A stretch of 41,717 nucleotides of DNA from Candidatus Daviesbacteria bacterium RIFCSPLOWO2_01_FULL_37_10 (lineage in GTDB: Bacteria > Patescibacteriota > Microgenomatia > Daviesbacterales > UBA10151). The position numbers and the translations under genes are program-made. Where the stretch lies: the NCBI GenBank assembly GCA_001776865.1, contig MFDK01000004.1, positions 1 to 41,717 of the forward strand, given 5' to 3'. The notes below the pieces were generated by a model that was given only the letters and a program-made list of their open reading frames with translations, was not told the origin of the DNA and made no database searches. Below, one piece after another: positions 10,232-38,390 of this stretch. The stretch's first letter is position 1; each line of letters opens with the position of its first letter.

Positions 10232-10281
10232 TTACCATCCAACTCAACCTGTAAATCCGAGGATTCTACGATTTTGGAAAC
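10232..10281 (-). other. Decayed duplicate of the fusA 3' end, including the stop position
   Basis: ttaccatccaactcaacctgtaaatccgaggattctacgattttggaaac compared with fusA 11035-11085 ttacctttcaactctgcctgtaaatccggaggtttctactattttagcagt. By hand alignment 40/50 positions are identical with one 1-nt gap. The relic translates as [15 protein letters not shown]; fusA ends [15 protein letters not shown]. Confidence 0.8.
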
Positions 10282-10282
10282 T

Positions 10283-10828
10283 TCACTCTGAAGCACCAAG
10301 CAAATCTTTTTTCGCTACTATTTTATATGTAGAACAATTTTTTGAAAGTGCTTGGCTAATAAAATTTTCAAATCCCACATAAATAACTTTTTTCTGTTCT
10401 TCTTTCGCTGTTTTTATAGCTGGCAATAAATCTGTATCTGAGGAAAATAAATAACATTTTTCATATTCATTTTTAATCGCGCCGCGAACCATATCAACTG
10501 CAATCTGAACATCCACCCCCTTCTCATGGTAAGAACCGTCGGAGAATAGGAGAAAACCCAGCTTTATTTCGATATCTAATTTTCTTAAATTTGAGAATAA
10601 TGACTGTTGATTTGCATATAAACTTGCAGATTTCTTATTACCAGGATATTTTCTTATTTCACCAACATAATAGATTATCTGCAAATCTTTCGTTTTTTCT
10701 TTAGTTATAGAATGGACAAATTTTCTATAGTCAAGCCTCATTAGGTGAGTTTGGGGTAAGAGTTTCTTAACCTTATTATAGAAATTACTTCCATCAATCT
10801 GAACTAAAATTTTTTTATTCATCCTCAT
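10283..10828 (-). CDS. NYN-domain (LabA/DUF88-like) putative RNase
   Basis: The pattern ...[11 protein letters not shown]...[14 protein letters not shown]...[13 protein letters not shown]... matches the NYN/LabA family (DG.N, KGVD, sDtD). Confidence 0.85.
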
Positions 10829-10841
10829 ATTTTAAAAGAAA

Positions 10842-10866
10842 CCCCCGGGTCGTAAAGAACCGGGGG
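10842..10866 (-). promoter_or_regulatory. Leader hairpin plus U tract 13 nt before the NYN start (attenuator- or terminator-like)
   Basis: The minus strand reads cccccgg-ttctttacgac-ccggggg (7 GC pairs) followed by tttcttttaaaat and then the ATG. Confidence 0.45.
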
Positions 10867-10879
10867 GAGTTAGATTTTA

Positions 10880-10908
10880 ATAATATCAGATAATATTGTA
10901 TTTGTCAA
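10880..10908 (-). promoter_or_regulatory. Sigma70-type promoter for the NYN gene
   Basis: The minus strand reads TTGACA (10908-10903), a 17-nt spacer aatacaatattatctga, then TATTAT (10885-10880). Confidence 0.5.
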
Positions 10909-10943
10909 AAAAAATCCTGCGAAGACTTTTCGGTGTCGCAGGA
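10907..10943 (-). terminator. Intrinsic terminator after fusA
   Basis: The minus strand reads tcctgcga-caccgaaaagtct-tcgcagga (8-bp stem) followed directly by T8. Confidence 0.6.
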
Positions 10944-11034
10944 GATTTAAGTATTTATATACTATCACACTATTACTTGAAAATGCAAGTAGGGGATATT
11001 TTGCCAAATTTGAGCCTAAATAGTATTAATTATC

Positions 11035-13179
11035 TTACCTTTCAACTCTGCCTGTAAATCCGGAGGTTTCTACTATTTTAGCAGTAATATTACTTGGCAC
11101 TGGTTCATAGTGATCTGCTTCCATGTATGAAGTTGCCCTACCTTGAGACATACTCCTTATATTTGTAACATATCCATGCATTTCTGCTAAAGGAACTAAA
11201 GCTATAACCACCTTGGAATTTCCACGGGATTCGGAAGACAGAATTTGGGCTCTTTTTGCGCTCAAATCCCCAATAATATCCCCTAAAAATTCCTCCGGAG
11301 TAGTAACCTCCACCTTCATTATCGGTTCAAGTAAAATCATGTCCGCACGAGCTGCCGCATCGGAAAGTCCGAGTGACCCGGCTATTTTAAAGGCCATCTC
11401 AGAGGAGTCAACATCATGAAATGATCCATCATAAACTGTAACTTTTATATCCGTAACCGGGTATCCTGCTAAAATTCCAGTATCTTCTTTCTCTATTACA
11501 CCTTTCTCAATTGGTGCAATGAATTCTCTTGGAATAGCACCTCCAACAATTTCTGAAACAAATTCCCTTCCTTGCCCGCGTGGTAATGGCTCAATCTTGA
11601 GTAAACAGTGTCCGTATTGACCGCGACCTCCGGTTTGCCTGATATATTTTCCCTCACCACGAGCTTCCTTTGTAATAGTCTCTTTATATGCAACTTGCGG
11701 CTGGCCAACATTGGCCTCAACCTTAAACTCCCTTTTCATCCGGTCAACCAAAACTTCCAGCTGCAGCTCACCCATTCCGGCTATTATTGTTTGACCGGTT
11801 TCGTGATCAGATTTTACTCTAAAGGTTGGATCTTCCTCAGATAAACGACCAAGAGCTAAACCCAGCTTTTCCTGATCAGACTTTGTTTTAGGTTCAATTG
11901 CAAGGGATATAACCGGTTCCGGAAAAGAAATTGACTCCAAAACTACCGGATTTCCCTCATCACAAAGAGTGTTTCCGGTTATAGTATCTTTAAGTCCAAC
12001 TGCTGCTACAATTTCACCGGCATATGCCTCATCAATTTCTTCTCTATCGTTAGCATGCATAAGAAGAAGTCTACCAACCCGTTCCTTAATTTGTTTATTA
12101 ACGTTATAAACATACGTCCCGGATTTCAAAGTTCCAGCATAAACTCTAATATAGGTTAGCTTTCCAACGTGTGGATCAACTTGAATTTTGAAAGCAAGCG
12201 CGGCCATCGGAGCTTCTTTATCCCCATTGTTAATAACAATCTCTTCTTCAGGATTACTTGGATTTTTCCCGGTAATTGAAGTAATATCCTGCGGCGAAGG
12301 TAAATATTCAACAACACTATCGAGCATGGGCTGAACACCTTTGTTACGAAGTGAAGATCCGGCAAGTACTGGTACGATTTTATTGTCAATAACTGCCCGA
12401 CGAAGAGCTTTTTTCAGATCCTCAACTGAGATTTCCTCTCCACCCAGGTATTTTTCCATTAGCACGTCATCGGTTCCAGAAATCTCCTCCACCAGCTTAT
12501 CTCTATACTTATCTACATCTGAGGTCATATCTGCTGGAATATCTGCTTCTTTGAAATCAGCTCCAGTTTCTGATCCCTCCCATATAAATGCTTTCTTAGT
12601 TAATAAATCTATAACACCGCGAAAATCATTTTCTTTCCCAATTGGCAAGTTGTATGCAACTGCATTTGCGCCGAGTCTATCTCTAGCAGACTGTATTGTC
12701 CCATGAAAATCTGCGCCAACTACATCCATTTTGTTTGCAAAAGCAATAAGTGGAACTTTATATTTATTAGCCTGTCTCCATACTGTTTCTGTTTGAGATT
12801 GAACCCCTGATGCAGAGTCTAGAACAATTACACCTCCGTCCAAAACACGCAGAGATCTCTCGACTTCAGCTGTAAAATCAACGTGTCCCGGGGTATCAAT
12901 TAAGTTAATCCTAATTTCAGCGTCTTTAAAAGAACCACTCTTTGGAGTCCAGAAGGTAGTAATAGCAGCAGAAACAATTGTAATTCCACGCTCTTTTTCC
13001 TGCTCCATCCAGTCAGTTGTAGTTGTTCCCTCATCAATATCGCCAATTTTATAGGTTCGACCGGTGTAAAATAAAATTCGCTCGGTTGTTGTGGTTTTAC
13101 CTGCATCAATGTGCGCAATAATACCTATATTTCTAATTCTATCCAGAGGAAAATCCCGTTTAGTTTTTTGTATAGCCAT
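11035..13179 (-). CDS. fusA: Elongation factor G
   Basis: [41 protein letters not shown]... is 714 aa and canonical EF-G. Confidence 0.97.
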
Positions 13180-13180
13180 A

Positions 13181-13408
13181 TTACCCTAGCTCCTCCTCCA
13201 GTTTTTTTATTGTTTTTCTAGCATTAGCAATCTGCGCAGAAGCAACTTGTGCCTCCTCGGTTCTAAGTTCATACCCTGCATTTTCTTTTAAATCACCCTC
13301 ACGGGCTGCTTCCCCGCGAAGCAGCATCAGCTCATCAAATCTTTTTACAAGCTGACTTTCCTGTTTCTTCCAAAATTCTAATTTTTCTTTCAATGTTTTC
13401 TTATCCAT
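13181..13408 (-). CDS. Stand-alone GreA/GreB N-terminal coiled-coil domain protein (75 aa)
   Basis: ...[46 protein letters not shown] compares with E. coli GreA ...[36 protein letters not shown]. The acidic tip residues (D..E) are retained and there is no C-terminal globular domain. The stop is 1 nt before the fusA ATG. Confidence 0.7.
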
Positions 13409-13438
13409 AAAAAAATAGCCTCCCTCAAACGGGGGAGG
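13409..13438 (-). terminator. Hairpin plus T7 between the 171-aa ORF and the GreA-N-like gene
   Basis: The minus strand reads cctccc-ccgtttga-gggagg, then cta, then ttttttt, and then directly the ATG at 13408. Confidence 0.4.
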
Positions 13439-13472
13439 AGTATGTATATACTACAAAATCCGAACCTAAAAG

Positions 13473-13988
13473 TCAAATCACAATTCCCTGGCTTATCAAA
13501 AATTGATTAAAACTAAGCGCGCTTTGATATAAATCCTCATAATCATCAGGTATTGGAGAATTTTCAAGAATGCAAGGGTATAAATTTTTCCACCTTCTTT
13601 GAAAATTTCTATTTATTAACCCATGAGTAAGTATTGAGGCTTGATTGTGTTCTAACTCTTCACTTAGGCGATGTTTAAATTGAGCATTAATATAATCCTC
13701 CGGATCTAAATCTTTTAGCTCAATGATTAATCTTTTTCCATTTTCATCAGCGCAGCCTTGATGTTCAAGCAAAATATGCGCAACACTGTGTATTGCCCGC
13801 ATCATTTTTCTGCCTGGAGTAAGACTAGCACTTAAATACAGTTTTTTCCTGTAGTTTGGAGGAGACACTTCAAGAACAGCATCCAAATAATCTCTTAACT
13901 CTTCCGTTACTATATTTATTCCATAATAAGGCTTAAGATAATACTCTTCCAACTTTCTCAAAGTAGAATACTCAGTTTCTTGAAGCAT
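13473..13988 (-). CDS. Hypothetical 171-aa protein (possible degenerate ImmA/IrrE-like motif)
   Basis: Clean ORF between rpsG and fusA. The only hint is RKMMRAIHSVAHILLEH, which resembles the HExxH helix of DUF955/ImmA peptidases with the Glu replaced by Ser. Confidence 0.55.
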   Translation of the reverse strand: MLQETEYSTLRKLEEYYLKPYYGINIVTEELRDYLDAVLEVSPPNYRKKLYLSASLTPGRKMMRAIHSVAHILLEHQGCADENGKRLIIELKDLDPEDYINAQFKHRLSEELEHNQASILTHGLINRNFQRRWKNLYPCILENSPIPDDYEDLYQSALSFNQFLISQGIVI

Positions 13989-14038
13989 TGATCTGCAGTT
14001 AAAAGCATCTTAATGTCTGAAAAGCTATATGTCAATAT

Positions 14039-14515
14039 CTACCACCTGAAGTGGGCGAAGGCACGATTGGCATTTGCTACTTTTTGGATTTCTTCTTTTT
14101 TCTTCATGGCAACTCCAGTACCACCAGATGCCTCCATAATTTCTGCTGCAAGTTTTTTATCAAAACTGTGATAATCTTTATTTGGCCTTGTTTGCGCACC
14201 AGTTATAATCCACCTGATTGCCAAAGCTTCTTTTCTATCTCCTCTTACCTCAGATGGAACCTGATACGATGCTCCCCCAACTCTTCTTGGCTTAACTTCC
14301 ATTTTCGGGGAAACATTCGTAATTGCTGTTTCAAAAACTTTTAAAGGATCCTGATTAGATTCCTCTTTAATTTGATCCAGCGCTCCGTAAACCAGTCTTT
14401 GTGCTATACTTTTTTTTCCGTCAATCATCACGTAGTTTATGAATTTTTGCAAAAGTCTGGATCCATAAATAGGATCCGGAGTAATTATTCTTCTTGGTGC
14501 TTTTTTACTTCTCAT
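14039..14515 (-). CDS. rpsG: 30S ribosomal protein S7
   Basis: MRSKKAPRRIITPDPIYGSRLLQKFINYVMIDGKKSIAQRLVY... is canonical S7. Confidence 0.97.
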   Translation of the reverse strand: MRSKKAPRRIITPDPIYGSRLLQKFINYVMIDGKKSIAQRLVYGALDQIKEESNQDPLKVFETAITNVSPKMEVKPRRVGGASYQVPSEVRGDRKEALAIRWIITGAQTRPNKDYHSFDKKLAAEIMEASGGTGVAMKKKEEIQKVANANRAFAHFRW

Positions 14516-14524
14516 TTTTTCCTT

Positions 14525-15001
14525 TTATACTGGTGGAGCTGCATCCGGCGTCGGTGCAGCAGGTGCTGCTGCAGATCTAGGCGCAGCTCCTCCGCCGCCT
14601 TTCTTAGTTCCATATCTGCTTCTCCCCTGCTTTCTTCCAACTACACCTTCCATATCAAGTTTTCCACGGATTATATGATATTTAACTCCAGGAAGGTCTT
14701 TTACTCTACCCCCTCTTACTAAAACTATTCCGTGCTCTGCAAGAGAGTGTCCAATACCCTGAATATATGCAGTAACCTCAGTCCTGTTTGAGAGTCTTAC
14801 CCTGGCAACTTTTCTAAGAGCTGAATTCGGTTTTTTAGGAGTCATAGTTTTTACCAAAGTTACAACACCCCGTTTTTGAGGGTTAAAAGTCTGTTTGTAT
14901 CTCCGATCTTTAGCGTTAAAGCTTTTTCTAAGAGCTGTTGCCTTAATCTTTTTACTAACTTTTGACCTTCCTTTTCTAACTAACTGATTAATTGTCGGCA
15001 T
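14525..15001 (-). CDS. rpsL: 30S ribosomal protein S12 with Gly/Ala/Pro-rich C-terminal tail
   Basis: From the ATG at 14999-15001: [15 protein letters not shown]..., canonical S12. The extra tail [26 protein letters not shown] is encoded by a GC-rich stretch at 14525-14600. Confidence 0.95.
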
Positions 15002-15005
15002 ATTT

Positions 15006-18695: not shown

Positions 18696-18700
18696 ATTAG

Positions 18701-18762: not shown

Positions 18763-18764
18763 AG

Positions 18765-24402: not shown

Positions 24403-24490
24403 AAAAACAGGTTTTTAAGATAAATCAAAAAGGCAGAAGAAGTATCTATACCTAAAACATATTATAACAGAGTCAGTTTAGTTTAGCAAA

Positions 24491-24522
24491 TTACGGATTA
24501 TTGGCTACATTTTTTGTTCTTC
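24491..24522 (-). other. Decayed duplicate of the mltG 3' end, including the stop position
   Basis: ttacggattattggctacattttttgttcttc compared with mltG 25023-25058 tcaaggattatttgctacattttccaggtgttcttc. By hand alignment 28/32 relic positions are identical with one 4-nt gap. Confidence 0.75.
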
Positions 24523-24529
24523 TGAAATG

Positions 24530-24538
24530 TGATATAAT
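24530..24538 (+). promoter_or_regulatory. Extended -10 promoter (TGaTATAAT) for a leaderless hicB mRNA
   Basis: tgatataat, then 6 nt (ctcact), then the ATG at 24545. Confidence 0.5.
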
Positions 24539-24544: not shown

Positions 24545-24817
24545 ATGAAAAAGATTACTCAGAAAGTTTTGAAATATACTGTAATTTTTGAACCAGCAAA
24601 AGAAGGTGGATATGTTGTGTCTGTACCTGCATTACCGGGTTGCGCTACTCAAGGAGAAACTTTTGAAGAAGCAATCTATATGATTAAGGACGCTATAAAA
24701 CTTTATCTTTCCGTATTAAAAGAAGATGGCGAAGATATTCCTCAGGAAAAGGACGATATATTAATAACTAAAATCTCCATACCTGTACCTGCCATTTCTA
24801 TCAATGGCATCCTTTAA
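24545..24817 (+). CDS. hicB: HicB-family antitoxin
   Basis: KYTVIFEPAKEGGYVVSVPALPGCATQGETFEEAIYMIKDAIKLYL is the HicB/UPF0150 fold signature. It overlaps hicA by 14 nt. Confidence 0.85.
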   Translation: MKKITQKVLKYTVIFEPAKEGGYVVSVPALPGCATQGETFEEAIYMIKDAIKLYLSVLKEDGEDIPQEKDDILITKISIPVPAISINGIL

Positions 24818-25019
24818 ACCGAAAGAAATTATTTCTATTCTTCAGAAACTTGGATTTATTAGAAAAAGACAATCAGGCAGTCATGTCATAATGTATCATC
24901 CAGAGACAAAGATAAGTCTTCCAGTACCGCTTCATACCAAAGATATTAAGAGAGGACTAGTTTTAAGTATCATTAAACAAGCTAAATCAAACGAGGAAGA
25001 GTTTATTAAACTGAAATAA
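24804..25019 (+). CDS. hicA: HicA-family mRNA interferase toxin
   Basis: ...KEIISILQKLGFIRKRQSGSHVIMYHPE... is the HicA/YcfA signature. Confidence 0.85.
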   Translation: MASFKPKEIISILQKLGFIRKRQSGSHVIMYHPETKISLPVPLHTKDIKRGLVLSIIKQAKSNEEEFIKLK

Positions 25020-25022
25020 GTT

Positions 25023-25979
25023 TCAAGGATTATTTGCTACATTTTCCAGGTGTTCTTCCAGGGTTTTTCCGTAGTGTGAATTTCCTTTACTATCATGATA
25101 GTAATATAAATACTGAGTATTCGGGTTTGCATTTGCAACAGCTTCCAGCGATGATAGGGATGGATTACAAATTGGAGCTGGCGGAAGACCTGGATTCTTA
25201 TACGTATTATAAGGAGATTTTATCTCTTTATCGTCTTTTGTAATATGTCTTTTCCACCAGGATTTTTCAGACTGCTGATATCCAAGGGCATATTGAACAG
25301 TTGCATCAACATCCAGTTTCATTCCAATATTTAACCTGTTAAGTAAAATCCCGGCAACTTCTGTTCTTACTTTATCTGACCTTCCTTCTCTTTCCACAAG
25401 CGAGGCTAAAATTACTCCTTCTTTCTCAGTTAACCCTTTAGCTTTTATTTTTTTCTTTAAATCATCCGCGTATTTCCTGTTAAAATTATCTTGAAGAGTC
25501 TCTGTTATATACTCAACTTCTGCGTCTTTTGGGAAAAGATACGTATCCGGAAACATATAACCTTCTTTTGATAGTTTAAGAAATTGTCCATTGTCAATTT
25601 TTAAGTTCCCGTTTAACTTTTCTGCCATTTCTTCTACTCTCCAACCTTCAATAAAAGTTACCCAAACATCATCTGTTCCGGAAGTTAAAACATTTGCAAT
25701 TTCAGAAATGCTCATGGAAGGGGAAAGCTTAAACGACCCTGCTTGAATCCTGGAAGCCAGATTATTTTGTCTGGCATAAATTTTAAAAGTAAGTTCTGAG
25801 CGGATTAAATTATCATCTTTTAATCTTTTAGCAATGCTAGATATCCCTTCACTTTTGGGAATTACTATTACCCTGGCATTTTCATCAGAGCTTACCGGAG
25901 AAGTTTGTACCTTCCACAAACCACCGGTAACTATAAACATCAGAAGAAAAATTAATATTATGGCTAAGAATTTTTTCAT
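25023..25979 (-). CDS. mltG: Endolytic murein transglycosylase MltG (YceG-like)
   Basis: N-terminal TM helix, then ...ILASLVEREG...NTYKNPGLPPAPICNPSLSSLEAV...YYYHDSKGNSHYGKTLEEH... Confidence 0.9.
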   Translation of the reverse strand: MKKFLAIILIFLLMFIVTGGLWKVQTSPVSSDENARVIVIPKSEGISSIAKRLKDDNLIRSELTFKIYARQNNLASRIQAGSFKLSPSMSISEIANVLTSGTDDVWVTFIEGWRVEEMAEKLNGNLKIDNGQFLKLSKEGYMFPDTYLFPKDAEVEYITETLQDNFNRKYADDLKKKIKAKGLTEKEGVILASLVEREGRSDKVRTEVAGILLNRLNIGMKLDVDATVQYALGYQQSEKSWWKRHITKDDKEIKSPYNTYKNPGLPPAPICNPSLSSLEAVANANPNTQYLYYYHDSKGNSHYGKTLEEHLENVANNP

Positions 25980-26717: not shown

Positions 26718-26729
26718 GAGGAGGGGGAA

Positions 26730-29653: not shown

Positions 29654-29713
29654 GCGGTTTTGCCCCAAAAGAAGGAGGCATTAATAGAATATTAACACAT
29701 TCAAATATCTTCC

Positions 29714-29825: not shown

Positions 29826-29828
29826 CAA

Positions 29829-30188: not shown

Positions 30189-30228
30189 ATTAGTGAAACT
30201 ATAACACCCCAAATCTTATTTGTCAAAA

Positions 30229-32061
30229 TCAAACAAGCTCCGCATAAATTCTTCTGACCCCTGAAGAAACTGCTTCTTCCTTGGTAATCTTTATACCACC
30301 AATCACATTTGTATGCTCAACATGTGGTCCGCCACAAAATTCGGCTGAGTAGTAACCACTGCGCTCACGTTGATCCTTTGCATTCACATCATAAATATGA
30401 TTTGACCCTATTACATAAATACTTACTTCTTCATCGTATTTTCCACCGAAGAGCCCAATGGCATTCATCTTCTGTGCCTCTTTCACACTCATAAATTTTC
30501 TTTCCACTACCAAATCTTCTTCTATTTTTTCATTAACCAGATCCTCAACTTTTTTAATTTCCTCCTCAGTCATTTTTCTATCATACGAAAAATCAAATCT
30601 TAACCGTTCGGTATTAATATTCGATCCTTTCTGAAAAACTTCCGGACCTAAAACATCTCTTAGAGCCTGGTGGAGGAGGTGAGTAACAGTATGGTATTTA
30701 ATCTCTGTTTCAGAATGTCCAGCCAAACCTCCCTTAAACATTCCTGCAGATGCAGTCCTTGAAAGTTCTTGATGTTTTTCAAACTCTTTCTTAAATTGCT
30801 CTTTATCAATATCTTGTCCTTTTTGCCTAAACAATTCCTCAGTCACTTCATATGGAAATCCAAATGTTTGATATAAATCAAAAGCAATTTTGCCATCTAT
30901 TTCGGAAATTTTCTCAATTTCTTTTAATCCTTTATCCAAAGTCTTCTGAAATTTTTCCAGTTCTTCGGTTATTACTTTGTTCACCCTGGGTAAACCTTCT
31001 TCCCAGTCAATTTCAAAAATCTCATTATACTGCGTTCTAATGATTCGAATCATTGAAACAAATGAGCTCACATCTAACCTTCCACTTAAATTGCGCATTT
31101 TTATTGCAGCTCTCCTAAGCAGTCTTCGCAAAACATAACCGTGCAGCTTATTAGAAGGAATCACACCATCCATAATCAAAAAAACAGAAGCTTTCAAATG
31201 GTCTGCAATAATTCTCATTAATTTTTTTTCTTCCTCGTCCTCATATGGATTACCAATAACTTGTACGATCGCATCAGTTATTGGCTTATGTAAATCAGTC
31301 TGGAATATATCCGGGTTATCATTAGTTGCTGCCGTTAATCTCTCCAATCCTCCTCCAAAATCAACGTTTTTTTGCGGAAGTTTTTCAAATTCGCTGTCGC
31401 CTGTTTTTTTGTATTCAATGAAAACTGAGTTTCCTATCTCCATAAAACGCCCGCAATTACAGTGAGGATGACATTTTTCTCCAAACCTTTCATCATGTTC
31501 TACTTGTGGAAACTCGAAGAATATCTCCGAATCAGTTCCTCCGATTTCTCCAACCGGCATTTGATCGGGAGATCCGGATCTACTCCACCAATTTTCTTTA
31601 ACTCCATAAAAATAGATCCTATCCTCAGGTACTCCAAAATCCTTCCATATACTAAAAGTCTCTTCATCTTTAGGGATTAAATTATCTCCCTCAAAAACTG
31701 TTACATGAAGTCTGTTAGGATCTAATCCTAATACATTAGTTAAAAATTCATAAACCCACCATATTTGTTCTTTCTTAAAGTAATCCCCCAAACTCCAGTT
31801 ACCCAACATCTCAAAAAATGTGGTGTGCCTGTTATCTCCAACCCCTTCTATGTCCTCAGCCCTAAAACAGGCTTGCGAATTAACCAATCTTATACCTTCA
31901 GGATGAGTTTTCCCCATTAAATACGGAATTAACTGCTGCATTCCGGATGAGGTAAAAAGTGTTGTCTGATCATCCGACACCAATCTGGCTGGATTTATTT
32001 GCACATGTTTTCTGCTTTTAAAAAAATCCAGGAATTTTTGTCTAATAACTCTTGAATCCAT
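30229..32061 (-). CDS. alaS: Alanine--tRNA ligase, short form lacking the C-Ala domain
   Basis: MDSRVIRQKFLDFFKSRKH...FTSSGMQQ...RHTTFFEMLGNWSLGDYFK is the class II AlaRS core. The editing-domain motifs HTVTHLLHQAL and CGGPHV are present. At 610 aa it ends about 30 aa after the CxxxH motif. Confidence 0.95.
   Translation of the reverse strand: MDSRVIRQKFLDFFKSRKHVQINPARLVSDDQTTLFTSSGMQQLIPYLMGKTHPEGIRLVNSQACFRAEDIEGVGDNRHTTFFEMLGNWSLGDYFKKEQIWWVYEFLTNVLGLDPNRLHVTVFEGDNLIPKDEETFSIWKDFGVPEDRIYFYGVKENWWSRSGSPDQMPVGEIGGTDSEIFFEFPQVEHDERFGEKCHPHCNCGRFMEIGNSVFIEYKKTGDSEFEKLPQKNVDFGGGLERLTAATNDNPDIFQTDLHKPITDAIVQVIGNPYEDEEEKKLMRIIADHLKASVFLIMDGVIPSNKLHGYVLRRLLRRAAIKMRNLSGRLDVSSFVSMIRIIRTQYNEIFEIDWEEGLPRVNKVITEELEKFQKTLDKGLKEIEKISEIDGKIAFDLYQTFGFPYEVTEELFRQKGQDIDKEQFKKEFEKHQELSRTASAGMFKGGLAGHSETEIKYHTVTHLLHQALRDVLGPEVFQKGSNINTERLRFDFSYDRKMTEEEIKKVEDLVNEKIEEDLVVERKFMSVKEAQKMNAIGLFGGKYDEEVSIYVIGSNHIYDVNAKDQRERSGYYSAEFCGGPHVEHTNVIGGIKITKEEAVSSGVRRIYAELV
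31035..31054. repeat. 20-nt motif ttctaatgattcgaatcatt, copy 1, inside the alaS coding sequence
   Basis: Exact 20-mer shared with 34049-34068 and 35549-35568. The core aatgattcgaatcatt is a perfect 16-nt palindrome. Here it encodes SMIRIIRT. Confidence 0.85.
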
Positions 32062-32078
32062 GAAGGTAGTATACCTTC

Positions 32079-32297
32079 TTAGCGTACATTTTTGAAGAGG
32101 CGGCGATTTGGTAATTTCGAAGACTTAGAGACTGTTAATATTTTCTCTTTTGCTTCTTCTGTATTCAAAAGCTTCTGTATACTATTTAAAGCCTGTTTTA
32201 AATCTCTGAGTATAAAAAATACCTGTAATCCTGTAATTGATAAAAATATGCCAAGAAGTATTATTAAAAAAATAAGTGCTATTTGTAAAAAATCCAT
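32079..32297 (-). CDS. Small membrane protein (72 aa)
   Basis: The N-terminal hydrophobic helix is FLQIALIFLIILLGIFLSITGLQVFFIL. A 7-bp hairpin, gaaggtagtataccttc (32062-32078), follows its stop. Confidence 0.45.
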   Translation of the reverse strand: MDFLQIALIFLIILLGIFLSITGLQVFFILRDLKQALNSIQKLLNTEEAKEKILTVSKSSKLPNRRLFKNVR

Positions 32298-32317
32298 ACC
32301 AGATATTTTAATACAAT

Positions 32318-32956
32318 CTAATCTTTTAAGTAAACAGTTCTTTCAACCTGTGTAGTTTTTCCGAATTTCGATGTAGAAGAAACCAATATTTTATTTACAC
32401 TCTCTGAAAGCTTAAGTTCCTGGGAAAAATTACCGTTACTGTCAGTCTCAATTTCCTGATTATTAATTGTAAGTTTTGCTTCCGGAATTGTTTTCCCGGA
32501 AACTGTAACTATTTGAGATTCAACATTTTGCTGATCTGTGGGAGTTGAAACCTCAAGAAAAGGGGAACCAACTAAATATCTATACTCATACCAAAGATAG
32601 CCAAAAAATATTATTACAAGGGTCACTACAATGGCTGACAGAACTTTTGCCGGAGTAAGAATAATTCTGCTTGTTTCTAGGGGGTTTCTAAAAGATTCTA
32701 AAATCTTCGGTGGATTCTTTTGATCTGAAAACTCCCTTCTGTAGATTGCCAGGAGCTTCTCTTTATCAAGCCCTAAAAATTTTCCATAACTTTTAATAAA
32801 TCCTTGTACAAAAGTTGAGGGAGGAAGTTTTGAGTAATCATCATTTTCGAGCGCCAGCAAAAGTTCTTTCCTGATCTTTGTTACTTTTTCGATTTCATCA
32901 AGAGTATAAAACTTTTTTTCCCGTTCTTCCTTTAAGATTTGCCCAACAGTTCTCAT
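32318..32956 (-). CDS. RodZ-like cytoskeleton/HTH membrane protein
   Basis: N-terminal XRE-type HTH (GQILKEEREKKFYTLDEIEKVTKIRKELLLALENDDYSKLP), a central TM helix and a C-terminal beta-rich domain. Confidence 0.7.
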   Translation of the reverse strand: MRTVGQILKEEREKKFYTLDEIEKVTKIRKELLLALENDDYSKLPPSTFVQGFIKSYGKFLGLDKEKLLAIYRREFSDQKNPPKILESFRNPLETSRIILTPAKVLSAIVVTLVIIFFGYLWYEYRYLVGSPFLEVSTPTDQQNVESQIVTVSGKTIPEAKLTINNQEIETDSNGNFSQELKLSESVNKILVSSTSKFGKTTQVERTVYLKD

Positions 32957-32977
32957 GGAGTAAATTATACAACAACC

Positions 32978-33006
32978 GTCATTGCGAGGCGAAGCCGAAG
33001 CAATCT
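32978..33006 (+). repeat. GTCAT-headed hairpin repeat
   Basis: gtcattgcgaggcgaagccgaagcaatct. Confidence 0.8.
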
Positions 33007-33414
33007 CTATACCGATCTTTTTCTAGCCTGTGGGAAATGAATAAGGAATAAAATTATTCCAACCAAGCTAAATGTTATCGCATTCTTGATATCATCAACC
33101 TGATGTTGTTTTCTATCTGCTGCTTCATTTTTTAGGCATTGTTCTTTTGCTCGTTGTATTTCCTGAGCGCTCGGGGTGCTCTCTATCCCATCTGGAGGCA
33201 GTACTTTAACTGACATCGGTCCTCTTGCAACCGGTACCAATCCATCTGCTCCATAGTCGCAGCTTGTGATTCCTCCCCATCTAAGTGGATACTGTTCAAA
33301 TTGCGTAGAATTTACAATAAAATTTGCAGCATTAAATATCCCAATAACCATTAAAATTATCGATCCAACTGAAATTATATAAAAATATATCGTAGCAATT
33401 GTCTTTCCGGACAT
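33007..33414 (-). CDS. Hypothetical membrane protein (135 aa, 2 TM helices)
   Basis: Hydrophobic helices at both termini (IATIYFYIISVGSIILMVIGIF and FSLVGIILFLIHF). Confidence 0.5.
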   Translation of the reverse strand: MSGKTIATIYFYIISVGSIILMVIGIFNAANFIVNSTQFEQYPLRWGGITSCDYGADGLVPVARGPMSVKVLPPDGIESTPSAQEIQRAKEQCLKNEAADRKQHQVDDIKNAITFSLVGIILFLIHFPQARKRSV

Positions 33415-33415
33415 A

Positions 33416-33697
33416 TTAAATTACTTTCATCTCGCTGAGATGCTCTCTAATCAATAAATTGGCAGCGTTTGATGTATCAATCCCTTTCTTTCTGGCCATC
33501 TTTTTAACCGCTTTCACTATTTCCGAATCAAGCGTTATAATCTCCTTATCTTCAAAAACCGATACCAGATTTTTGGAAAATTTCATATCTGTCACAGGTT
33601 CCCAAAAATCCGGGAAGTCTTCGGTTGAGTGAGTATCCCAAAATTCTGCCTCCTCTTGAATACTTTTAAATTTAGGTACAGTTCTAGTTTTTTTCAT
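33416..33697 (-). CDS. brnA: BrnA-type antitoxin
   Basis: From the ATG at 33695-33697: MKKTRTVPKFKSIQEEAEFWDTHSTEDF... plus a C-terminal RHH-like region. It overlaps the brnT stop by 14 nt. An upstream ATG at 33730 is also possible. Confidence 0.75.
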   Translation of the reverse strand: MKKTRTVPKFKSIQEEAEFWDTHSTEDFPDFWEPVTDMKFSKNLVSVFEDKEIITLDSEIVKAVKKMARKKGIDTSNAANLLIREHLSEMKVI

Positions 33698-33953
33698 TTT
33701 TAAATCTCCTTTTTTCCTTAAAATCAGCATCTCTTGCTGTCATTGGATAGAAATAACCACCCAATCTTGGTGATAAGATTATAGTTAAATACCTACCACT
33801 AACTGATTGCCCTATTAACTTGTAACTACCACTCCTACCTTTAGTGAATAAATTTTTGCTATTACAAGCCTCCTCTACTTCACTCTGCTCAACATTATGT
33901 CTTGCAGTATGGGCAATATTCCACTCGTCCCAGACCAGTTTCTTAATTACCAT
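33684..33953 (-). CDS. brnT: BrnT-type toxin (DUF497)
   Basis: ...LVWDEWNIAHTARHNVEQSEVEEA...YPMTARDADFKEKRRF is the BrnT/DUF497 pattern. Confidence 0.8.
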   Translation of the reverse strand: MVIKKLVWDEWNIAHTARHNVEQSEVEEACNSKNLFTKGRSGSYKLIGQSVSGRYLTIILSPRLGGYFYPMTARDADFKEKRRFKNEKN

Positions 33954-33961
33954 CCTTGTAT

Positions 33962-33970
33962 ATTATACCA
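33962..33970 (-). promoter_or_regulatory. Extended -10 promoter (TGgTATAAT) for a near-leaderless brnTA mRNA
   Basis: The minus strand reads tggtataat, then 8 nt, then the ATG at 33953. Confidence 0.45.
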
Positions 33971-34048
33971 CGGACAAATTTTTTACCATCACACTATATT
34001 TATATGCGCCAATATAATGTACGATCGTATATCTTATTGGTTAAGATA

Positions 34049-34068
34049 TTCTAATGATTCGAATCATT
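34049..34068. repeat. 20-nt motif ttctaatgattcgaatcatt, copy 2
   Basis: Exact copy, about 80 nt upstream of the brnT -10. GTCAT hairpins follow. Confidence 0.85.
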
Positions 34069-34080
34069 GAAGTCATAACT

Positions 34081-34105
34081 GTCATCCTCGCGTAGGCAGG
34101 GATCC
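34081..34105 (+). repeat. Degenerate GTCAT hairpin repeat
   Basis: gtcatcctcgcgtaggcagggatcc (imperfect stem). Confidence 0.6.
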
Positions 34106-34168
34106 ATTTAAAAACCTGCGTAGTAATTTCCACCGAGTCGAACTAGGCAGGCATCCCCAAGTGGGAAG

Positions 34169-34902
34169 CTAAATTTCCATTTGGGCAGATAGTTTTGGTA
34201 GATGAGAATAGTAAAACCAGCCTGTTTCAATTTGGGTCAGTACCAGTCTTACCTTTTCATAATCATTAAACTCTAATTCTCTAGAGGGGAAATCTCTTTT
34301 CATCACATCTAAATTAATCATATAACTAATACTACCAAGTCTTATATAATCTTCATCAAAAGGAGAACTCTGGTCATAACCATGATTTATCAATACAGCC
34401 TTACCTTGCTTTGTAAAGAAATATGTATATTGATACTCACACATAAATCCATTTCATCAACCCACATAATATCATCTGGATCTAATATTTCGGCATTAGC
34501 AGGAACTAGATCTCCCCCATAATCTTCAGGTCTGAGTCCTAAACTATAAACCGGATAATCAAAGCCTTCTGGTATTTTAAATGACCAGTTCTCTAACATG
34601 GATTCTTCCTGAAAAACCGTAATAAATGCCAAATGCGAAGGCAGATCTTTTTTGCTACATAAAAAGAGCATCGCTGTATTTAAACTCAAATCAGGATGTT
34701 CTAGTTTTTCCTTCTCGACTATTTTCTTAATCCTGTCAGCAAATAGTTTATTTTCTGCTTTAAAAATTTCTTCAGTTTCTCTCTCAGACATGGATAAGAT
34801 TATAAACCAAGGGTATGTTTTTATCAATTCATTCTCAGCTCCGCCTCCCCTTTGAGCCAAATATTCCTCTGCATTTTTAACCAGGAAATTTCCTGATTGC
34901 AT
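34169..34902 (-). pseudogene. Frameshifted ORF (two overlapping frames) whose 5' end is the ftsK relic
   Basis: ORFs 34390..34902 and 34169..34444 overlap in different frames. Removing one TG from the tgtgtg run (plus-strand cacaca, 34438-34443) fuses ...VDEMDL to CEYQYTYFF... The true start may be M38 (34791, MSERETEE...). Confidence 0.4.
34839..34889 (-). other. Decayed duplicate of the ftsK 3'-terminal coding sequence
   Basis: ctccgcctcccctttgagccaaatattcctctgcatttttaaccaggaaat compared with ftsK 36308-36358. By hand count 44/51 positions are identical with no gaps. It encodes LVKNAEEYLAQRGGG; ftsK has LVKNVEEYLAQRGGG. Confidence 0.85.
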
Positions 34903-34916
34903 ATATCGAACTGGTC

Positions 34917-34925
34917 TGCTATAAA
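34917..34925 (+). promoter_or_regulatory. Extended -10 promoter (TGcTATAAA) for the two-gene unit
   Basis: tgctataaa, then 7 nt, then the ATG at 34933. Confidence 0.4.
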
Positions 34926-34932
34926 TACACTT

Positions 34933-35121
34933 ATGAAAACAATTAACCTTTCAAGGCTTTTGAAAAACTTCTCTTCAGGATGGGTGGCTATTACTTCTGA
35001 CTATAAAAAAGTGGTTGCGTCAGGCAAAACCCTAAAAGAAGTTTCCAGTAAAGTCGGGGACGAAGATGTTGTTTTAATTTCTGCCTCAAAAAATTATAGA
35101 GGATATATAACTGCCGGATAA
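34933..35121 (+). CDS. Small protein (62 aa), DUF5678-like
   Basis: From the ATG at 34933: MKTINLSRLLKNFSSGWVAITSDYKKVVASGKTLKEVSSKVGDEDVVLISASKNYRGYI. From memory the pattern (GxWVAI..., vvasG.tl.ev) resembles DUF5678-type proteins. This needs an HMM search. Confidence 0.5.
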   Translation: MKTINLSRLLKNFSSGWVAITSDYKKVVASGKTLKEVSSKVGDEDVVLISASKNYRGYITAG

Positions 35122-35122
35122 G

Positions 35123-35527
35123 ATGAATTTCCCATATGCCACCCTCCCTGGTGTGCCAAAAGATACTAGAAGACCATTAGCACTAATTAAATTTATTCAC
35201 AAAGATAAATCAACTCGCCCGATTCTTTGTTTAATTGCTTCTGGTGCAGACTACTCTTATTTAACAACAGAGATTGCTGATTTATTGAATATTAATTTAA
35301 GTAAAATTACTCCACAGAAATCATTTGCAATTAACGGTTCGCAATTCTTATGTTACCCGTCAGAAATTGAAATCGAGATAGGTGGTCATCGATTAACTAT
35401 TCCAGTTCACTTTACTAAATCATTAACTTCGGCTTTCCCCTGCATAATAGGTCAGGAAAATTTCTTTAGCAAAACCAGGATTATTTTTGAAAGATACAAA
35501 TGGAATTTGGATATCAAATTAGTTTGA
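35123..35527 (+). CDS. Retropepsin-like (clan AA) domain protein with Ala in place of the catalytic Asp
   Basis: ...ILCLIASGADYSYLTTEIADLLNI... aligns with the D[ST]GA motif, read here as ASGA. A later ...PCIIGQENFF... aligns with the ILG.dfL motif. The gene starts 1 nt after the upstream stop. Confidence 0.55.
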   Translation: MNFPYATLPGVPKDTRRPLALIKFIHKDKSTRPILCLIASGADYSYLTTEIADLLNINLSKITPQKSFAINGSQFLCYPSEIEIEIGGHRLTIPVHFTKSLTSAFPCIIGQENFFSKTRIIFERYKWNLDIKLV

Positions 35528-35548
35528 AAATATATTTCATGTAATTTG

Positions 35549-35568
35549 TTCTAATGATTCGAATCATT
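35549..35568. repeat. 20-nt motif ttctaatgattcgaatcatt, copy 3
   Basis: Exact copy, 21 nt after the stop of the retropepsin-like gene. GTCAT hairpins follow. Confidence 0.85.
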
Positions 35569-35582
35569 AAAGCAACACATTT

Positions 35583-35695
35583 GTCATTCTGAAACGAACA
35601 AAAAGAAGCGATAAGCAGAACTTGCTTTTGCTACGCAAAAGTAGAATCTTTCTCCGTCATTGCGAGGAGCGAGTGAAGCGAGCGACGTGGCAATC
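35583..35695 (+). repeat. Two GTCAT hairpin repeats with nested inserts
   Basis: 35583-35648 is gtcattct[...ttttgctacgcaaaa...]agaatc. 35656-35695 is gtcattgcgaggagcgagtgaagcgagcgacgtggcaatc. Confidence 0.8.
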
Positions 35696-35736
35696 TATCT
35701 GACATTCCCACATTCCAAGTGGAAAACTATATAGAA

Positions 35737-36264
35737 TCACATTGCAACAAGTTGTGGAGAATGTAAACCTAAAACATGCTCTATAGAAGGAGGCTGAATG
35801 AAATGAATTTGAATCCTCTTAAAAATTTCAGGATGATCTGGAACAGGATAGTATCGCGGTGCTTCGTTAAGTTTCTTTTGCCATCTTTCAATTACTACTA
35901 TATCATCTTGATACCCCAATAAAACTTCTTCTCTATCCCTAACAACGCATAACACATTTGGATAAGTAGAATTAGTAGTGGGCATTAAACAAAGAGTTAA
36001 TATTAAAGGGTTATCTTCAATACCTCTTAATGCTTGAATATCTAACATCCGCCTATGAATAGTAGCGCTGGGTAAATTACCTTCCTCTATAAACTCTCTT
36101 CTTTGTTCTATTAGAGCATTCTTCCTATATAATAAAGGGCGCACATGAACATCCCATAAATCGAAATATTGTGAGGGGGAAATATTTCCTTTATCATCTA
36201 CATCATACTCAGAAAACGGAGTAATATCCTGACCTAATCGAACATCAATACGCTCTTCTACCAT
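35737..36264 (-). CDS. Hypothetical 175-aa protein (island cargo)
   Basis: Clean ORF with an ATG at 36262-36264. I recognise no family. Confidence 0.5.
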   Translation of the reverse strand: MVEERIDVRLGQDITPFSEYDVDDKGNISPSQYFDLWDVHVRPLLYRKNALIEQRREFIEEGNLPSATIHRRMLDIQALRGIEDNPLILTLCLMPTTNSTYPNVLCVVRDREEVLLGYQDDIVVIERWQKKLNEAPRYYPVPDHPEIFKRIQIHFIQPPSIEHVLGLHSPQLVAM

Positions 36265-36296
36265 TAAATAAACTATAAACTAGATGGTTTTATTTG

Positions 36297-38390
36297 TCAA
36301 CTTTCCCCTCCGCCGCCTCTTTGAGCCAAATATTCTTCAACATTTTTGACCAGGACATCCCGCGGTTTTGCACCGTCTCCTGTTCCAACAACTCCTGCCT
36401 CTTCCAGCTCATCCAGGATACGGGCTGCACGCGCATAGCCCACGCGAAGCCGTCTCTGCAGAAGTGAGGCTGAAGCCCGGTCATATTGACAAACAGTTCT
36501 TACCGCCTCCTCAAATAAATCATCTTCTTCACCTATACCACCTCCTTTACCAATTCTTCCAAGAGGCATTTCTGTTACCTCAGTTGTATACTGCGGCTCA
36601 ACTCCTGTTGATTTAAGATACTTTATTAAGTTATTTATTTCGGGGTCTTGAACGAAAACTCCCTGTATTCTAACAGGTTTGCTTGCATCAGGAGGTAAAA
36701 ACAACATATCTCCGCGACCAAGAAGTTTCTCAGCCCCCGGCGTATCCAAAATGACCCGGGAGTCAATCATGGATGATACATTAAATGCAATACGGCAGGG
36801 GATATTTGCCTTAATTAAACCTGTTATAACATCAACGGATGGCCGCTGCGTTGCCACAACAAGATGAATTCCTGTTGCTCTTGCCAGTTGGGCAATACGG
36901 GTGATTGCATCTTCCACTTCAACTGGAGCAAACATCATTAAATCTGCAAGTTCATCAATTATAATTACAATGTAAGGAAGAGCCTGAAATCCTGACATTT
37001 CATTATACCCTGCAATATTTCTAACTCCAACGGACTGGAAAAGTTTATACCTGCGGTCCATTTCTGCCATTGCCCATTTTAAGGCTGAGAGGATTTTTTC
37101 AGGCTCTGTTATAACAGGAGTTAAAAGATGGGGGATGCCGTTATAGTTTGTCAGTTCCACCCTTTTTGGGTCTATTAGAATAAGTTTAAGCTCGTCCGGA
37201 GAATTTCTGAAAAGCAGAGAGCTAATCATAGAATTTATTAAAATTGATTTTCCGGATCCGGTTGTTCCAGCAACCAGGCAATGGGGCATCCTGTCTATAT
37301 CAACAATCATAGGTTTTGAAGCTGTATCCCTGCCTAAAGATACTGCAAGTTTAGATTTGTGCTTACTCATCTCATCAGATGCCAGGATATTTTTAAGCCC
37401 TACTATCTCCAGTGAATGGTTTGGCACTTCAATCCCTACTAAAGATTTTCCGGGAATTGGCGCCTCAATTCTAACAGTTCCTGTTGGCGTAGCCAGGGAA
37501 AGAGCTATATCGTGCTGTAGGTTTGCAATTTTGGCAATTTTTGTCCCTGCTGATATTTCCAGCGCATATTGAGTAACAGCCGGACCACCGTTTACTTCAG
37601 CCACTCTTGCCTGAACCCCGAAAGAGTCCAGTGTTTTTTCAATAACGGAAGCATTTTTCTTTATATCTCCCCTGTTTGCAGGAGAACCAACTTTATCTGA
37701 TAGAAGAGAAAGCGGCGGATATTTCCAAACCCTTGCCTGCCCGGCAACATTTTGCACAAGTTCATCAGCCATAACTGTTTCTTTAGATTTCACAGGAGTT
37801 TTTTCAGAAGTCTGGTTCAATCCGGAAAGTTTGATAGGGATATGTTTTGCCTCAAAGGTTCTTTGTCTGGCAAATACAGGAATAAGTATTTTTTCCTTTA
37901 TAGCTTTTATTACCCACCCCAATATCCCAAAAATCTGCGAAAGCGAAGTATTAAACATTACAACAAGTCCCACTAAAAATACCCCTATTAACAAAAATGC
38001 ACTGCCTAAAGGAGTAATAAAAGATGCCAGCTGACTCCATAGAGAAAAACCAATCATGCCCGCATTTTCAGAAGAAATTCCTGCAGTAAGGCCTGTAATT
38101 GATAAAATTAAAAGTACAAGTCCTAAAAGTACATTTGTTTGAGCAAACCCCCACTTTACTTTTTGTAAGACAAGCCCGCAAAGCACAAATAAAACTGGAG
38201 AAAAAACATAAGTCCAGCCCAATGTTTTAAATAGAAAATTTTTCCAGAACCTTAAAATACTCGCATCCATTACCAATGATACTAAAGAAAGTCCTGCCAG
38301 CATAAAACTGATCAGGGATCCCACGGCAAAAATGGTTTTCTTTTTAAGTCTTAACTTTGGTGTTGAATAAATAGATCTTCGTCTAGACAT
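36297..38390 (-). CDS. ftsK: DNA translocase FtsK/SpoIIIE
   Basis: N-terminal TM helices, the motor domain with Walker A (VAGTTGSGKS), and a C-terminal winged-helix gamma-like domain (...LLQRRLRVGYARAARILDELEEAGVV...). Confidence 0.95.
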   Translation of the reverse strand: MSRRRSIYSTPKLRLKKKTIFAVGSLISFMLAGLSLVSLVMDASILRFWKNFLFKTLGWTYVFSPVLFVLCGLVLQKVKWGFAQTNVLLGLVLLILSITGLTAGISSENAGMIGFSLWSQLASFITPLGSAFLLIGVFLVGLVVMFNTSLSQIFGILGWVIKAIKEKILIPVFARQRTFEAKHIPIKLSGLNQTSEKTPVKSKETVMADELVQNVAGQARVWKYPPLSLLSDKVGSPANRGDIKKNASVIEKTLDSFGVQARVAEVNGGPAVTQYALEISAGTKIAKIANLQHDIALSLATPTGTVRIEAPIPGKSLVGIEVPNHSLEIVGLKNILASDEMSKHKSKLAVSLGRDTASKPMIVDIDRMPHCLVAGTTGSGKSILINSMISSLLFRNSPDELKLILIDPKRVELTNYNGIPHLLTPVITEPEKILSALKWAMAEMDRRYKLFQSVGVRNIAGYNEMSGFQALPYIVIIIDELADLMMFAPVEVEDAITRIAQLARATGIHLVVATQRPSVDVITGLIKANIPCRIAFNVSSMIDSRVILDTPGAEKLLGRGDMLFLPPDASKPVRIQGVFVQDPEINNLIKYLKSTGVEPQYTTEVTEMPLGRIGKGGGIGEEDDLFEEAVRTVCQYDRASASLLQRRLRVGYARAARILDELEEAGVVGTGDGAKPRDVLVKNVEEYLAQRGGGGES

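Follow-up and report, generated by a model that had tools for sequence, protein, structure and literature searches.

Why does a decayed fragment of a gene's own 3' end recur beyond its stop codon at three housekeeping genes of one compact genome? The question is raised by a stretch of 41,717 nt, hereafter the window, from Candidatus Daviesbacteria bacterium RIFCSPLOWO2_01_FULL_37_10, a groundwater member of the Candidate Phyla Radiation (CPR; assembly GCA_001776865.1, contig MFDK01000004.1, positions 1-41,717 of the forward strand). Its genes lie nearly all on the minus strand, and Pfam confirms among them fusA, tuf, mltG (YceG), ruvX, alaS, ftsK and RNase J. Behind fusA, mltG and ftsK stands a small unit of accessory genes, here called the cargo, with a second, degraded copy of the gene end, here called the relic, at its distal edge. 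A first, sequence-only reading had taken these structures for the footprint of one recurrent, trans-acting mechanism that could be assigned to no described family. Such a family does exist: insertion with long target duplication already fits them (PMC2853133). The three loci are long-lived variable slots, each directly behind a conserved gene of a compact CPR genome, and their footprint is best matched by this rare, already described and unexplained class rather than by a new class of mobile element.

The repeats were assessed by local alignment against dinucleotide-preserving shuffles. The end of fusA and its relic are identical in 38 of 45 aligned columns with one 1-nt gap (score 53, shuffle mean 15.3, z = 16.6), corresponding to a repeat that had been aligned by hand as 40/50 with one 1-nt gap. 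At ftsK, 44 of 51 positions are identical between the gene end and nucleotides 34839-34889 (score 68, z = 23.3). This identity had been reported correctly, but the length of 51 nt had not: the duplication passes the stop codon and runs through the promoter of the next gene (11 of 12 promoter positions) to just before the next start codon, that is over ~95 nt. The mltG repeat (25023-25058 against 24491-24522) is present where it had been described, with a score of 35 and z = 9.0, and is the weakest of the three, since the null maximum over the whole 2.9-kb downstream region reaches 32. All three gene-end duplications thus exist at the positions first proposed and exceed their shuffled controls (z = 16.6, 9.0 and 23.3 for fusA, mltG and ftsK). 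Only two copies of each repeat occur within the window and within each locus, and the relics sit exactly at the cassette edges, that of mltG closing the hicBA unit on its distal side. Including the relatives, whose genomes and loci are designated below by L-numbers (L004, L125, L130 etc.), the repeats measure 32-36 nt (mltG), 45 nt (fusA), 48 nt (L135), 52 nt (L004) and 51 to ~95 nt (ftsK), and the inserts between gene and relic 0.5-4.7 kb. The coordinates are collected in Table 1.

Table 1. Features of the fusA-tuf, mltG and ftsK slots, in coordinates of the window
Feature	Coordinates	Strand	Basis or remark
tuf (EF-Tu)	8938..10131	-	Pfam; promoter and leader at ~10160-10225 directly after the relic
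fusA relic	10232..10275	-	Frameshift and in-frame TGA, TAA end; 12 nt upstream of tuf -35 hexamer
NYN-domain protein, 181 aa, present cargo of the fusA slot	10283..10828	-	Pfam NYN, E = 1.2e-18; in all same-species contigs
Promoter-like site of the NYN gene, TTGACA-17-TATTAT with TG	10880..10908	-	Hairpin and T-run before it, 10910-10948
Slot-specific motif CAAATTTGGCAAAATAT	10996..11012	-	23 nt after fusA stop
Gene-proximal fusA repeat copy, last 45 nt including TAA	11035..11079	-	Local alignment z = 16.6; blastn 84% over 45 nt
fusA, EF-G, 714 aa, target gene of the first slot	11035..13179	-	Pfam GTP_EFTU, EFG_III, EFG_IV, EFG_C
Promoter-like site of the 73-aa ORF, TTGCTA-17-TATAAT with TG	24461..24489	-	Begins 1 nt after the mltG relic
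mltG relic	24491..24522	-	One 4-nt deletion; three other differences all synonymous, including TGA -> TAA
hicB (24545-24817) and hicA (24804-25019), toxin-antitoxin pair	24545..25019	+	Pfam HicB_lk_antitox, HicA_toxin
mltG, YceG family, 318 aa, target gene of the second slot	25023..25979	-	Pfam YceG, E = 1.8e-80; repeat copy 25023-25058
Older accessory block, from the relic to the HTH_25 gene: split 244-aa ORF, BrnT/CopG-like pair, 135-aa ORF	33007..34812	-	
ftsK relic and duplicated promoter TTGATA-17-TATAAT (34827-34799), driving the downstream ORF	34794..34889	-	Alignment
DUF5678-like ORF (34897-35121; probable ATG 34933) and 134-aa aspartyl-protease-family ORF (35123-35527)	34897..35527	+	Own promoter at ~34895-34925
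p175, ORFan, ftsK-proximal variable position	35737..36264	-	Absent in L129; other ORFs instead in L125 and L138
Gene-proximal ftsK repeat copy: last 62 nt of ftsK and promoter TTGACA-17-TATAGT (36300-36272)	36268..36358	-	Promoter overlaps the stop codon
ftsK, 697 aa, target gene of the third slot	36297..38390	-	Pfam FtsK_alpha, FtsK_SpoIIIE, FtsK_gamma

Could these similarities be trivial? Loci identical to the window were found in 16-19 groundwater metagenome contigs and in the NCBI assemblies GCA_001775315.1 and GCA_001777095.1. Since the same structures recur in independent assemblies (ENA, JGI and NCBI), they are not assembly artefacts. The 16-19 contigs with identical EF-G or FtsK all carry the cassettes, and no empty-site polymorphism was seen within the species among contigs found through these two proteins; the exact MltG protein matched no record. 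A scan of JGI metagenomes with AlaRS recovered only distant relatives (at most 59% for full proteins and 70% for fragments), without relics, and served for synteny only. We also ran a blind scan that set each open reading frame (ORF) end against the 6 kb following it and covered the window and 80 fusA loci of other genomes (~1.1 Mb). Apart from the window, only L004 gave real-gene matches of this type; L004 is a Candidatus Daviesbacteria metagenome-assembled genome, the nearest genome in the species-level collection (EF-G 80% identical). Chance similarity, ordinary local tandem duplication or an assembly artefact is scarcely credible. The shortness of the mltG relic and its score of 35 against a regional maximum of 32 speak for chance; z values of 9 to 23 and the identity of the structures between assemblies speak against chance and artefact, which are already contradicted for fusA and ftsK. 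A tandem duplication of the segment at ftsK was rejected, the ORFs that follow the two copies being unrelated and the relics lying exactly at cassette boundaries.

The cargos were identified by Pfam as NYN, HicB/HicA, DUF5678 and a BrnT/CopG-like pair. They fit the names first given from the translations (NYN, hicBA, DUF5678-like/retropepsin-like), the homologues of the 134-aa protein carrying the aspartyl-protease domains PF13975 or PF13650. By family domains, type II toxin-antitoxin cargo comprises HicB/HicA in the window, Phd/ParE in L004 and HTH_17/PIN_3 in L130; the DUF5678/protease pair may be called toxin-antitoxin-like by its architecture only. The hicBA genes are convergent with mltG, with the hicA stop 3 nt from the mltG stop, and are preceded by an extended -10 (TGATATAAT) at ~24528-24536.

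No integrase or transposase domain was detected with Pfam, NCBIfam or PHROGs in any cassette or flank examined in the window, L004, L130, L132 and L135 (about eight instances), and neither a tRNA or tmRNA nor any Rfam family in the window. The cassette ends bear no terminal inverted repeats, and duplications of 32 to ~95 nt are unlike those of insertion sequences (IS), miniature inverted-repeat transposable elements or transposons (<15 bp). Nor do the cassettes look like those of an integron, with no palindromic attC-like site at their ends and no integrase in the window. The sequence-only reading had listed integrase, transposase, terminal inverted repeats and tRNA as missing from the window, and the domain, tRNA and repeat searches bear it out.

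The most direct indication of where the repeats come from is given by the DUF5678/protease pair, which has a second target. Protease proteins 71-73% identical to that of the window are encoded in two other Daviesbacteria lineages (L135/L136 and L133/L134), directly after a Na_H_Exchanger/TrkA_N gene. There the pair is co-directional with the exchanger gene, and at ftsK in the window it has the opposite orientation relative to its target. In L135/L136 the two-gene unit extends from 2 nt upstream of its ATG to its stop codon and is flanked by a 48-nt duplicate made of the last 34 nt of the exchanger gene and 13 nt downstream (score 59, null maximum 26; 43 identities in 48 aligned columns). The same exchanger-end relic is present, decayed, in L133/L134. 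With L133 as outgroup, the four coding differences in L135 are distributed as two on the relic and two, both synonymous, on the gene, the pattern expected from a single duplication and later divergence. That one cassette family stands at two targets, in both orientations and each time with a local duplicate, argues for target duplication at insertion and against a copy borne by the element; on these alignments, the duplicated sequence would be the local target and not element cargo. No empty site was found for the exchanger-gene target in L135. A third target was considered for the pair and dropped, as L138 turned out to be the ftsK context again, without a relic.

The fusA slot shows that such structures recur. 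The fusA relic is positionally orthologous to the relics of L132 and L130, and four Daviesbacteria species (window, L130, L132 and L004) hold four different cargos, each with a fusA relic: the NYN gene in the window, a 162-aa ORF and a split 91-aa ORF in L130 (EF-G 94% identical), ORFs of 99 and 91 aa in L132 (EF-G 92%), and 4.66 kb with a histidine kinase, a DUF6259 protein and Phd/ParE in L004. In L130, a 120-aa ORF and the HTH_17/PIN_3 pair follow beyond the relic, and then tuf. The block formed by relic and tuf promoter is collinear between the window and L132 (76% over 226 nt), and the block formed by cargo and relic between L130 and L132 (68% over 373 nt). Therefore the fusA relic predates the split of the window, L130 and L132, and NYN is its current occupant only. 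Relics differ from each other (34-36 identities over ~46 positions) and from the genes (37-39 over ~47) in such a way that they have changed, by our own estimate, at about half the synonymous rate, a pace that suggests either constraint or gene conversion from time to time. In L004 the relic is nearest to its own fusA (38/48, against 31-35/46-47 for the others), which speaks for either an independent event or concerted evolution.

The same slot and its surroundings hold several other features. The motif AAATTTGGCAAAATAT, often placed after a short hairpin, is confined to the fusA-tuf slot (window 10996-11012; L130 at 8887, 9687 and 10512; L132 at 9727), and the HTH_17/PIN_3 pair of L130 is flanked by a 47-nt direct repeat holding it (43/47 identical). 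Between the tuf promoter and start codon, a hairpin with a T-run (10166-10184) resembles an attenuator and is kept in L130 and L132. A truncated IS200-type (Y1) transposase ORF lies in L004 at 13087-13500, ~750 nt beyond the fusA relic and outside the flanked insert. On the other side of fusA, the gap to rpsG (13181-13988) holds two non-canonical ORFs within the str operon, of 171 aa (no family) and 75 aa (weak GreA N-terminal match), kept in L004, L130 and L132. In many other CPR genomes, fusA-tuf gaps reach 0.4-4.9 kb against ~50-100 nt in ordinary bacteria; in a look for integrases there, by visual inspection only, the ORFs resembled pilins, ATPases and one conserved small ORF. A conserved small ORF (M..QLK..I.L.KKTGDRI.VFD…) stands just upstream of tuf in L012, L014, L016, L017, L019, L037 and L071.

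The ftsK slot provides the only empty site. In L128 (FtsK 85% identical), ftsK is followed by the HTH_25 gene after a gap of 195 nt, the two genes being neighbours in all more distant Microgenomates too, and the window carries 3.3 kb of extra DNA between them. Both ftsK copies of the window align to the single ftsK end of L128 at 77-81%, and the relic aligns to the single ends of L125 and L128 at ~80%. Synteny thus supplied the empty arrangement at ftsK, but none was found among relatives for fusA (within the clade) or for mltG.

The explanation that we favour, tentatively and at a little under even confidence, is a recombinase-independent insertion with long target duplication into slots that persist and whose cargo then turns over. 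Foreign DNA, for the most part small modules that stabilise themselves (HicAB, the DUF5678/aspartyl-protease pair and the NYN RNase; Phd/ParE and HTH_17/PIN_3 in relatives), would enter at the extreme 3' end of the upstream gene. Its entry would copy 30-100 bp of target to both sides, through host break repair or illegitimate joining and with no element-encoded recombinase. The slot would then persist, the relic decaying slowly while further cassettes accrete, and the cargo between gene and relic would be swapped, probably by homologous recombination in the conserved flanks. In the window, the fusA and mltG relics stop 1-12 nt upstream of a promoter-like -35 hexamer (those of tuf and of the 73-aa ORF after mltG, respectively), the ftsK relic contains a promoter, and the ftsK stop codon lies inside the TTGACA of the next promoter. 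An insertion might survive only if the last codons of the essential gene and the next promoter with its upstream context were both kept. Survivors would carry a duplicated gene end because of this overlap of stop and promoter, combined with retention through addiction modules. Such a promoter-context filter could also account for the slow decay of the fusA relics.

Several observations weigh against this explanation. At fusA, judged by the collinear blocks, the relic is older than the NYN cargo, so that cassette and duplication are not one unit and the relic event is not tied to the present occupant. At ftsK, slot insertions without a relic are known in three cases: in L125 (FtsK 87%) the slot holds an HXXEE ORF together with a decayed protease pair, L138 has another ORF and the protease pair, and p175 is itself an insertion relative to L129 (FtsK 92%), where p175 is absent, the pair begins 150 nt after ftsK and the contig stops just short of the expected relic position. 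By this comparison the ftsK relic is not tied to one particular cassette. No close pair of occupied and empty sites was found: both copies matching a single target at high identity was not seen, the sole empty site, in L128, standing at ~75-80%. The absence of a recombinase applies to at most ~60 kb of the window's own genome. The published class was described for restriction-modification genes (PMC2853133), and its mechanism is still unexplained, its authors having proposed that DNA breakage by the cargo contributes (PMC2853133). Finally, the 36 nucleotide differences within five repeat pairs comprise 20 synonymous and 16 non-synonymous changes, where 24% synonymous is expected (P = 3.5e-5), and this excess leaves room for the two copies being the gene ends of two lineages.

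Because the protease pair stands beside ftsK in L129, L125 and L138, it is an old resident, and the ORF between ftsK and the pair is exchangeable. The ftsK cassette had been described as one compact unit. The pair does have its own promoter, but the unit is composite, an ORFan (p175) joined to a long-resident pair. No homologue of p175 other than itself was found among 1.84 billion representative proteins; it would be driven by the promoter overlapping the ftsK stop codon. The ORF downstream of the ftsK relic (34169-34902) is split in the window into 170 and 91 aa by in-frame stops and is a single 244-aa ORF in sister assemblies (L121-L123), so that the split would be either a recent pseudogene or a sequence error.

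The synonymous excess leads to a first rival, one-ended homologous import, in which related Daviesbacterium DNA would be anchored by homology in the conserved gene and joined illegitimately on the other side. The two copies would be the donor's and the recipient's gene ends, and the relic the truncated end of the resident or of the imported segment. In competent bacteria, such integration of small linear DNA is an established mechanism (PMC3240628). One-ended import would account for the strong synonymous excess, including the two stop-to-stop changes (TGA -> TAA and TAG -> TAA). Selection on the gene copy after duplication explains part of this excess, duplication followed by decay predicting by our own estimate ~39% synonymous changes, somewhat below what is observed. 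The ftsK relic also encodes a normal FtsK tail (…KNAEEYLAQRGGGAE) with Ala and Ala-Glu states as in L125 and L128 and not as in the window's own gene; a 30-nt piece of the fusA relic in L132 matches the L130 fusA end perfectly and shows 4 differences from L132's own gene; and the ftsK duplication runs on through an orthologous promoter and leader. Gene and relic are 77-86% identical in the window, L004 and L130 (90% in L135), and the copy divergence of 14-20% equals that between species of the clade. Against these points, the donor must already have held the cargo beside the same gene, which leaves its first arrival unexplained, and in L135 the polarity of the changes fits a single duplication with later change on both copies. 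Moreover, gene and relic of the window share lineage-specific states (TTG in ftsK, ..GG TAA in fusA), and the relics are always short (32-62 coding nt), which calls for the extra assumption that longer repeats were lost by recombination. On balance we consider one-ended import unlikely.

Insertion with target duplication must also be weighed against a more classical origin, in which the repeats are attL/attR scars of site-specific elements that integrate at gene 3' ends and bring a replacement end along in attP, with the integrase since lost or acting in trans. CIME-like (cis-mobilizable) non-autonomous elements and tycheposon-like satellites are comparable cases. The 3' ends of conserved genes and the regeneration of the reading frame are classic for integrases, and accretion beside the gene with older blocks pushed distally is observed at ftsK and in L130. 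The fusA end was used in two lineages that look independent, each repeat pair retains identical runs of 10-17 nt that could represent a crossover core, and toxin-antitoxin modules are what would be expected to outlast the rest of a decaying element. However, neither an integrase nor a fragment of one was found in the roughly eight instances or their flanks, and the same cassette family has different local repeats at its two targets, in both orientations. The cassettes are ORF-tight, as in L135 or at mltG with hicA, leaving no room for attP arms; repeat lengths, at 32, 45-58, 48 and ~95 nt, vary without a shared core, and the two fusA events start at different points, about -46 and -58. An integrase with a gene-end mimic would fit the excess of synonymous change too, but is opposed by the lineage-specific states shared by gene and relic. 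We regard this origin as distinctly unlikely.

A third rival comes closest to the sequence-only reading: a dedicated, undescribed trans-acting CPR system that would insert ORF-tight cassettes of toxin-antitoxin type into gene 3' ends and copy 30-100 bp of target in doing so, with the fusA, mltG and ftsK slots preferred. Several genomes show the footprint, its cargo being mostly of toxin-antitoxin type and its cassette boundaries very tight. The motif AAAAT(N)GT(A/T)G has nine coding-strand occurrences in the window, six of them inside the repeats, which would suit such a system. The count was made post hoc, and proper controls gave no significance: pair by pair, the three targets resemble each other no more than random coding segments do (p = 0.19-0.56), and 8.4% of random coding-segment triples share a comparable 9-mer (p ~0.08). 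The motif was consequently dropped as a recognition sequence. Repeat length varies three-fold, slot insertions without relics occur, the fusA relic is ancient and does not reflect repeated recent activity, and no candidate enzyme was seen. A dedicated system is thus very unlikely. From the idea of one recurrent trans-acting mechanism, the footprints themselves stand as real, recurrent and devoid of a recombinase in cis (at fusA in L004, L130 and L132, and in L135), but the absence of a shared motif, the insertions without a relic and a fusA relic older than its cargo do not go with it.

Other repeated sequences were noticed in these loci. REP-like (repetitive extragenic palindromic) units of one type (…TCATTCCGGACTTGATCCGGAAT… / …AGATCCTGAAAC.AGTTCAGGATGAC…) occupy spacers of the ribosomal-protein operon at 4636-4708, 8869-8933, 40290-40319 and 41678-41707, and a second type (…CGCTCCTCGCAATGACGG) lies in the ftsK slot at ~35650-35700; both types are also present in L132. 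A count of direct against inverted repeats in the Daviesbacteria loci (15 vs 1) was not used, its excess coming partly from these palindromic units. In L132, a GIY-YIG nuclease-family ORF on the opposite strand (13022-13261), between the rpsJ region and rplC, is flanked by REP-like units. Three copies of a perfect 16-bp palindrome, AATGATTCGAATCATT, lie in the window, at 31028-31058 (inside the alaS ORF), 34042-34072 and 35542-35572, and a near-identical one flanks a Trp_repressor-family ORF between rpsG and the next ORF in L132 (5543-5573 and 6025-6055); the sequence may be an operator or another cassette boundary. Finally, a low-complexity stretch (TGATGTCTGATGACTGATG…) is found twice in the ribosomal-protein operon (2521-2571 and 6389-6439).

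How do the slots compare with known systems? Integrase-driven islands at gene 3' ends and their derivatives, the principal alternative family, include streptococcal integrative and conjugative, integrative mobilizable and cis-mobilizable elements (ICE, IME and CIME) at protein-gene ends, and tycheposons with partial-tRNA repeats. The slots resemble them by the regenerated target 3' end, the partial copy displaced distally, tandem accretion and the existence of integrase-less members. They differ by having no integrase in any instance, repeats derived from the target at two targets, no space for attP and no common core; a recombinase inside the element, one attP matched to one target and a common core motif, which define site-specific elements, are all lacking. 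With integron gene cassettes they share compact, ORF-tight and often toxin-antitoxin cassettes stacked at one site, but they show no attC-like imperfect palindrome, IntI or attI, and their repeats are copies of host gene ends. Homology-facilitated illegitimate recombination (PMC3240628) likewise integrates DNA additively, without a recombinase, beside a conserved anchor, and predicts two diverged, once-functional gene ends; its experimental demonstration is confined to a few competent species and E. coli conjugation (PMC3240628), and alone it leaves the first arrival at a new target, as in L135, unexplained.

The closest likeness is to insertion with long target duplication (Nobusato et al. 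2000, Gene 259:99; Furuta, Abe & Kobayashi 2010, PMC2853133), a class whose first examples were restriction-modification genes of Helicobacter pylori and which was later recognised in Haemophilus, Neisseria, Campylobacter, Microcystis and other genera (PMC2853133), and also invoked for rRNA operons (PMC3457768). The class is defined by unique direct repeats >30 bp around an insert <20 kb without mobility genes, with both repeats aligning to one copy at the empty site of a related genome, and often touches a gene 3' end (PMC2853133), published Haemophilus cases having 46-bp repeats that overlap one (PMC2853133). Here the repeats reach 45 nt at fusA, 51 to ~95 at ftsK, 48 in L135 and 52 in L004, with mltG borderline at 32-36, and the inserts of 0.5-4.7 kb hold no mobility gene, the nearest being the truncated IS200-type ORF outside the L004 relic. 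Common to both are units of 0.5-5 kb without integrase or transposase, target-derived direct repeats >30 bp of variable length, addiction-type cargo and an unexplained mechanism. The differences concern the hosts, here CPR bacteria; the targets, here essential-gene ends whose stops abut the next promoter; and the age of the repeats, the relics being old and diverged (77-90%) with an empty site at only ~75-80%, whereas most published pairs are near-identical. The cargo differs as well, consisting of toxin-antitoxin and RNase modules with no DNA-cutting enzyme where the published inserts are restriction-modification genes. If the present cases belong to the class, the idea of breakage by the cargo does not fit them, since their cargos cut no DNA.

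A footprint known since 2000 without a mechanism, and tied mainly to restriction-modification genes, is thus found around non-DNA-cutting cassettes of toxin-antitoxin type, in slots within highly conserved neighbourhoods (the str operon, after mltG, after ftsK) of ~1-Mb genomes. If the proposed assignment is true, the process behind the class would be independent of the cargo and driven by the host, the overlap of stop codon and promoter would give a simple reason for the duplication in survivors, and CPR core operons would hold persistent slots with fast cargo turnover. One cassette family at two targets offers a concrete comparative handle on the mechanism.

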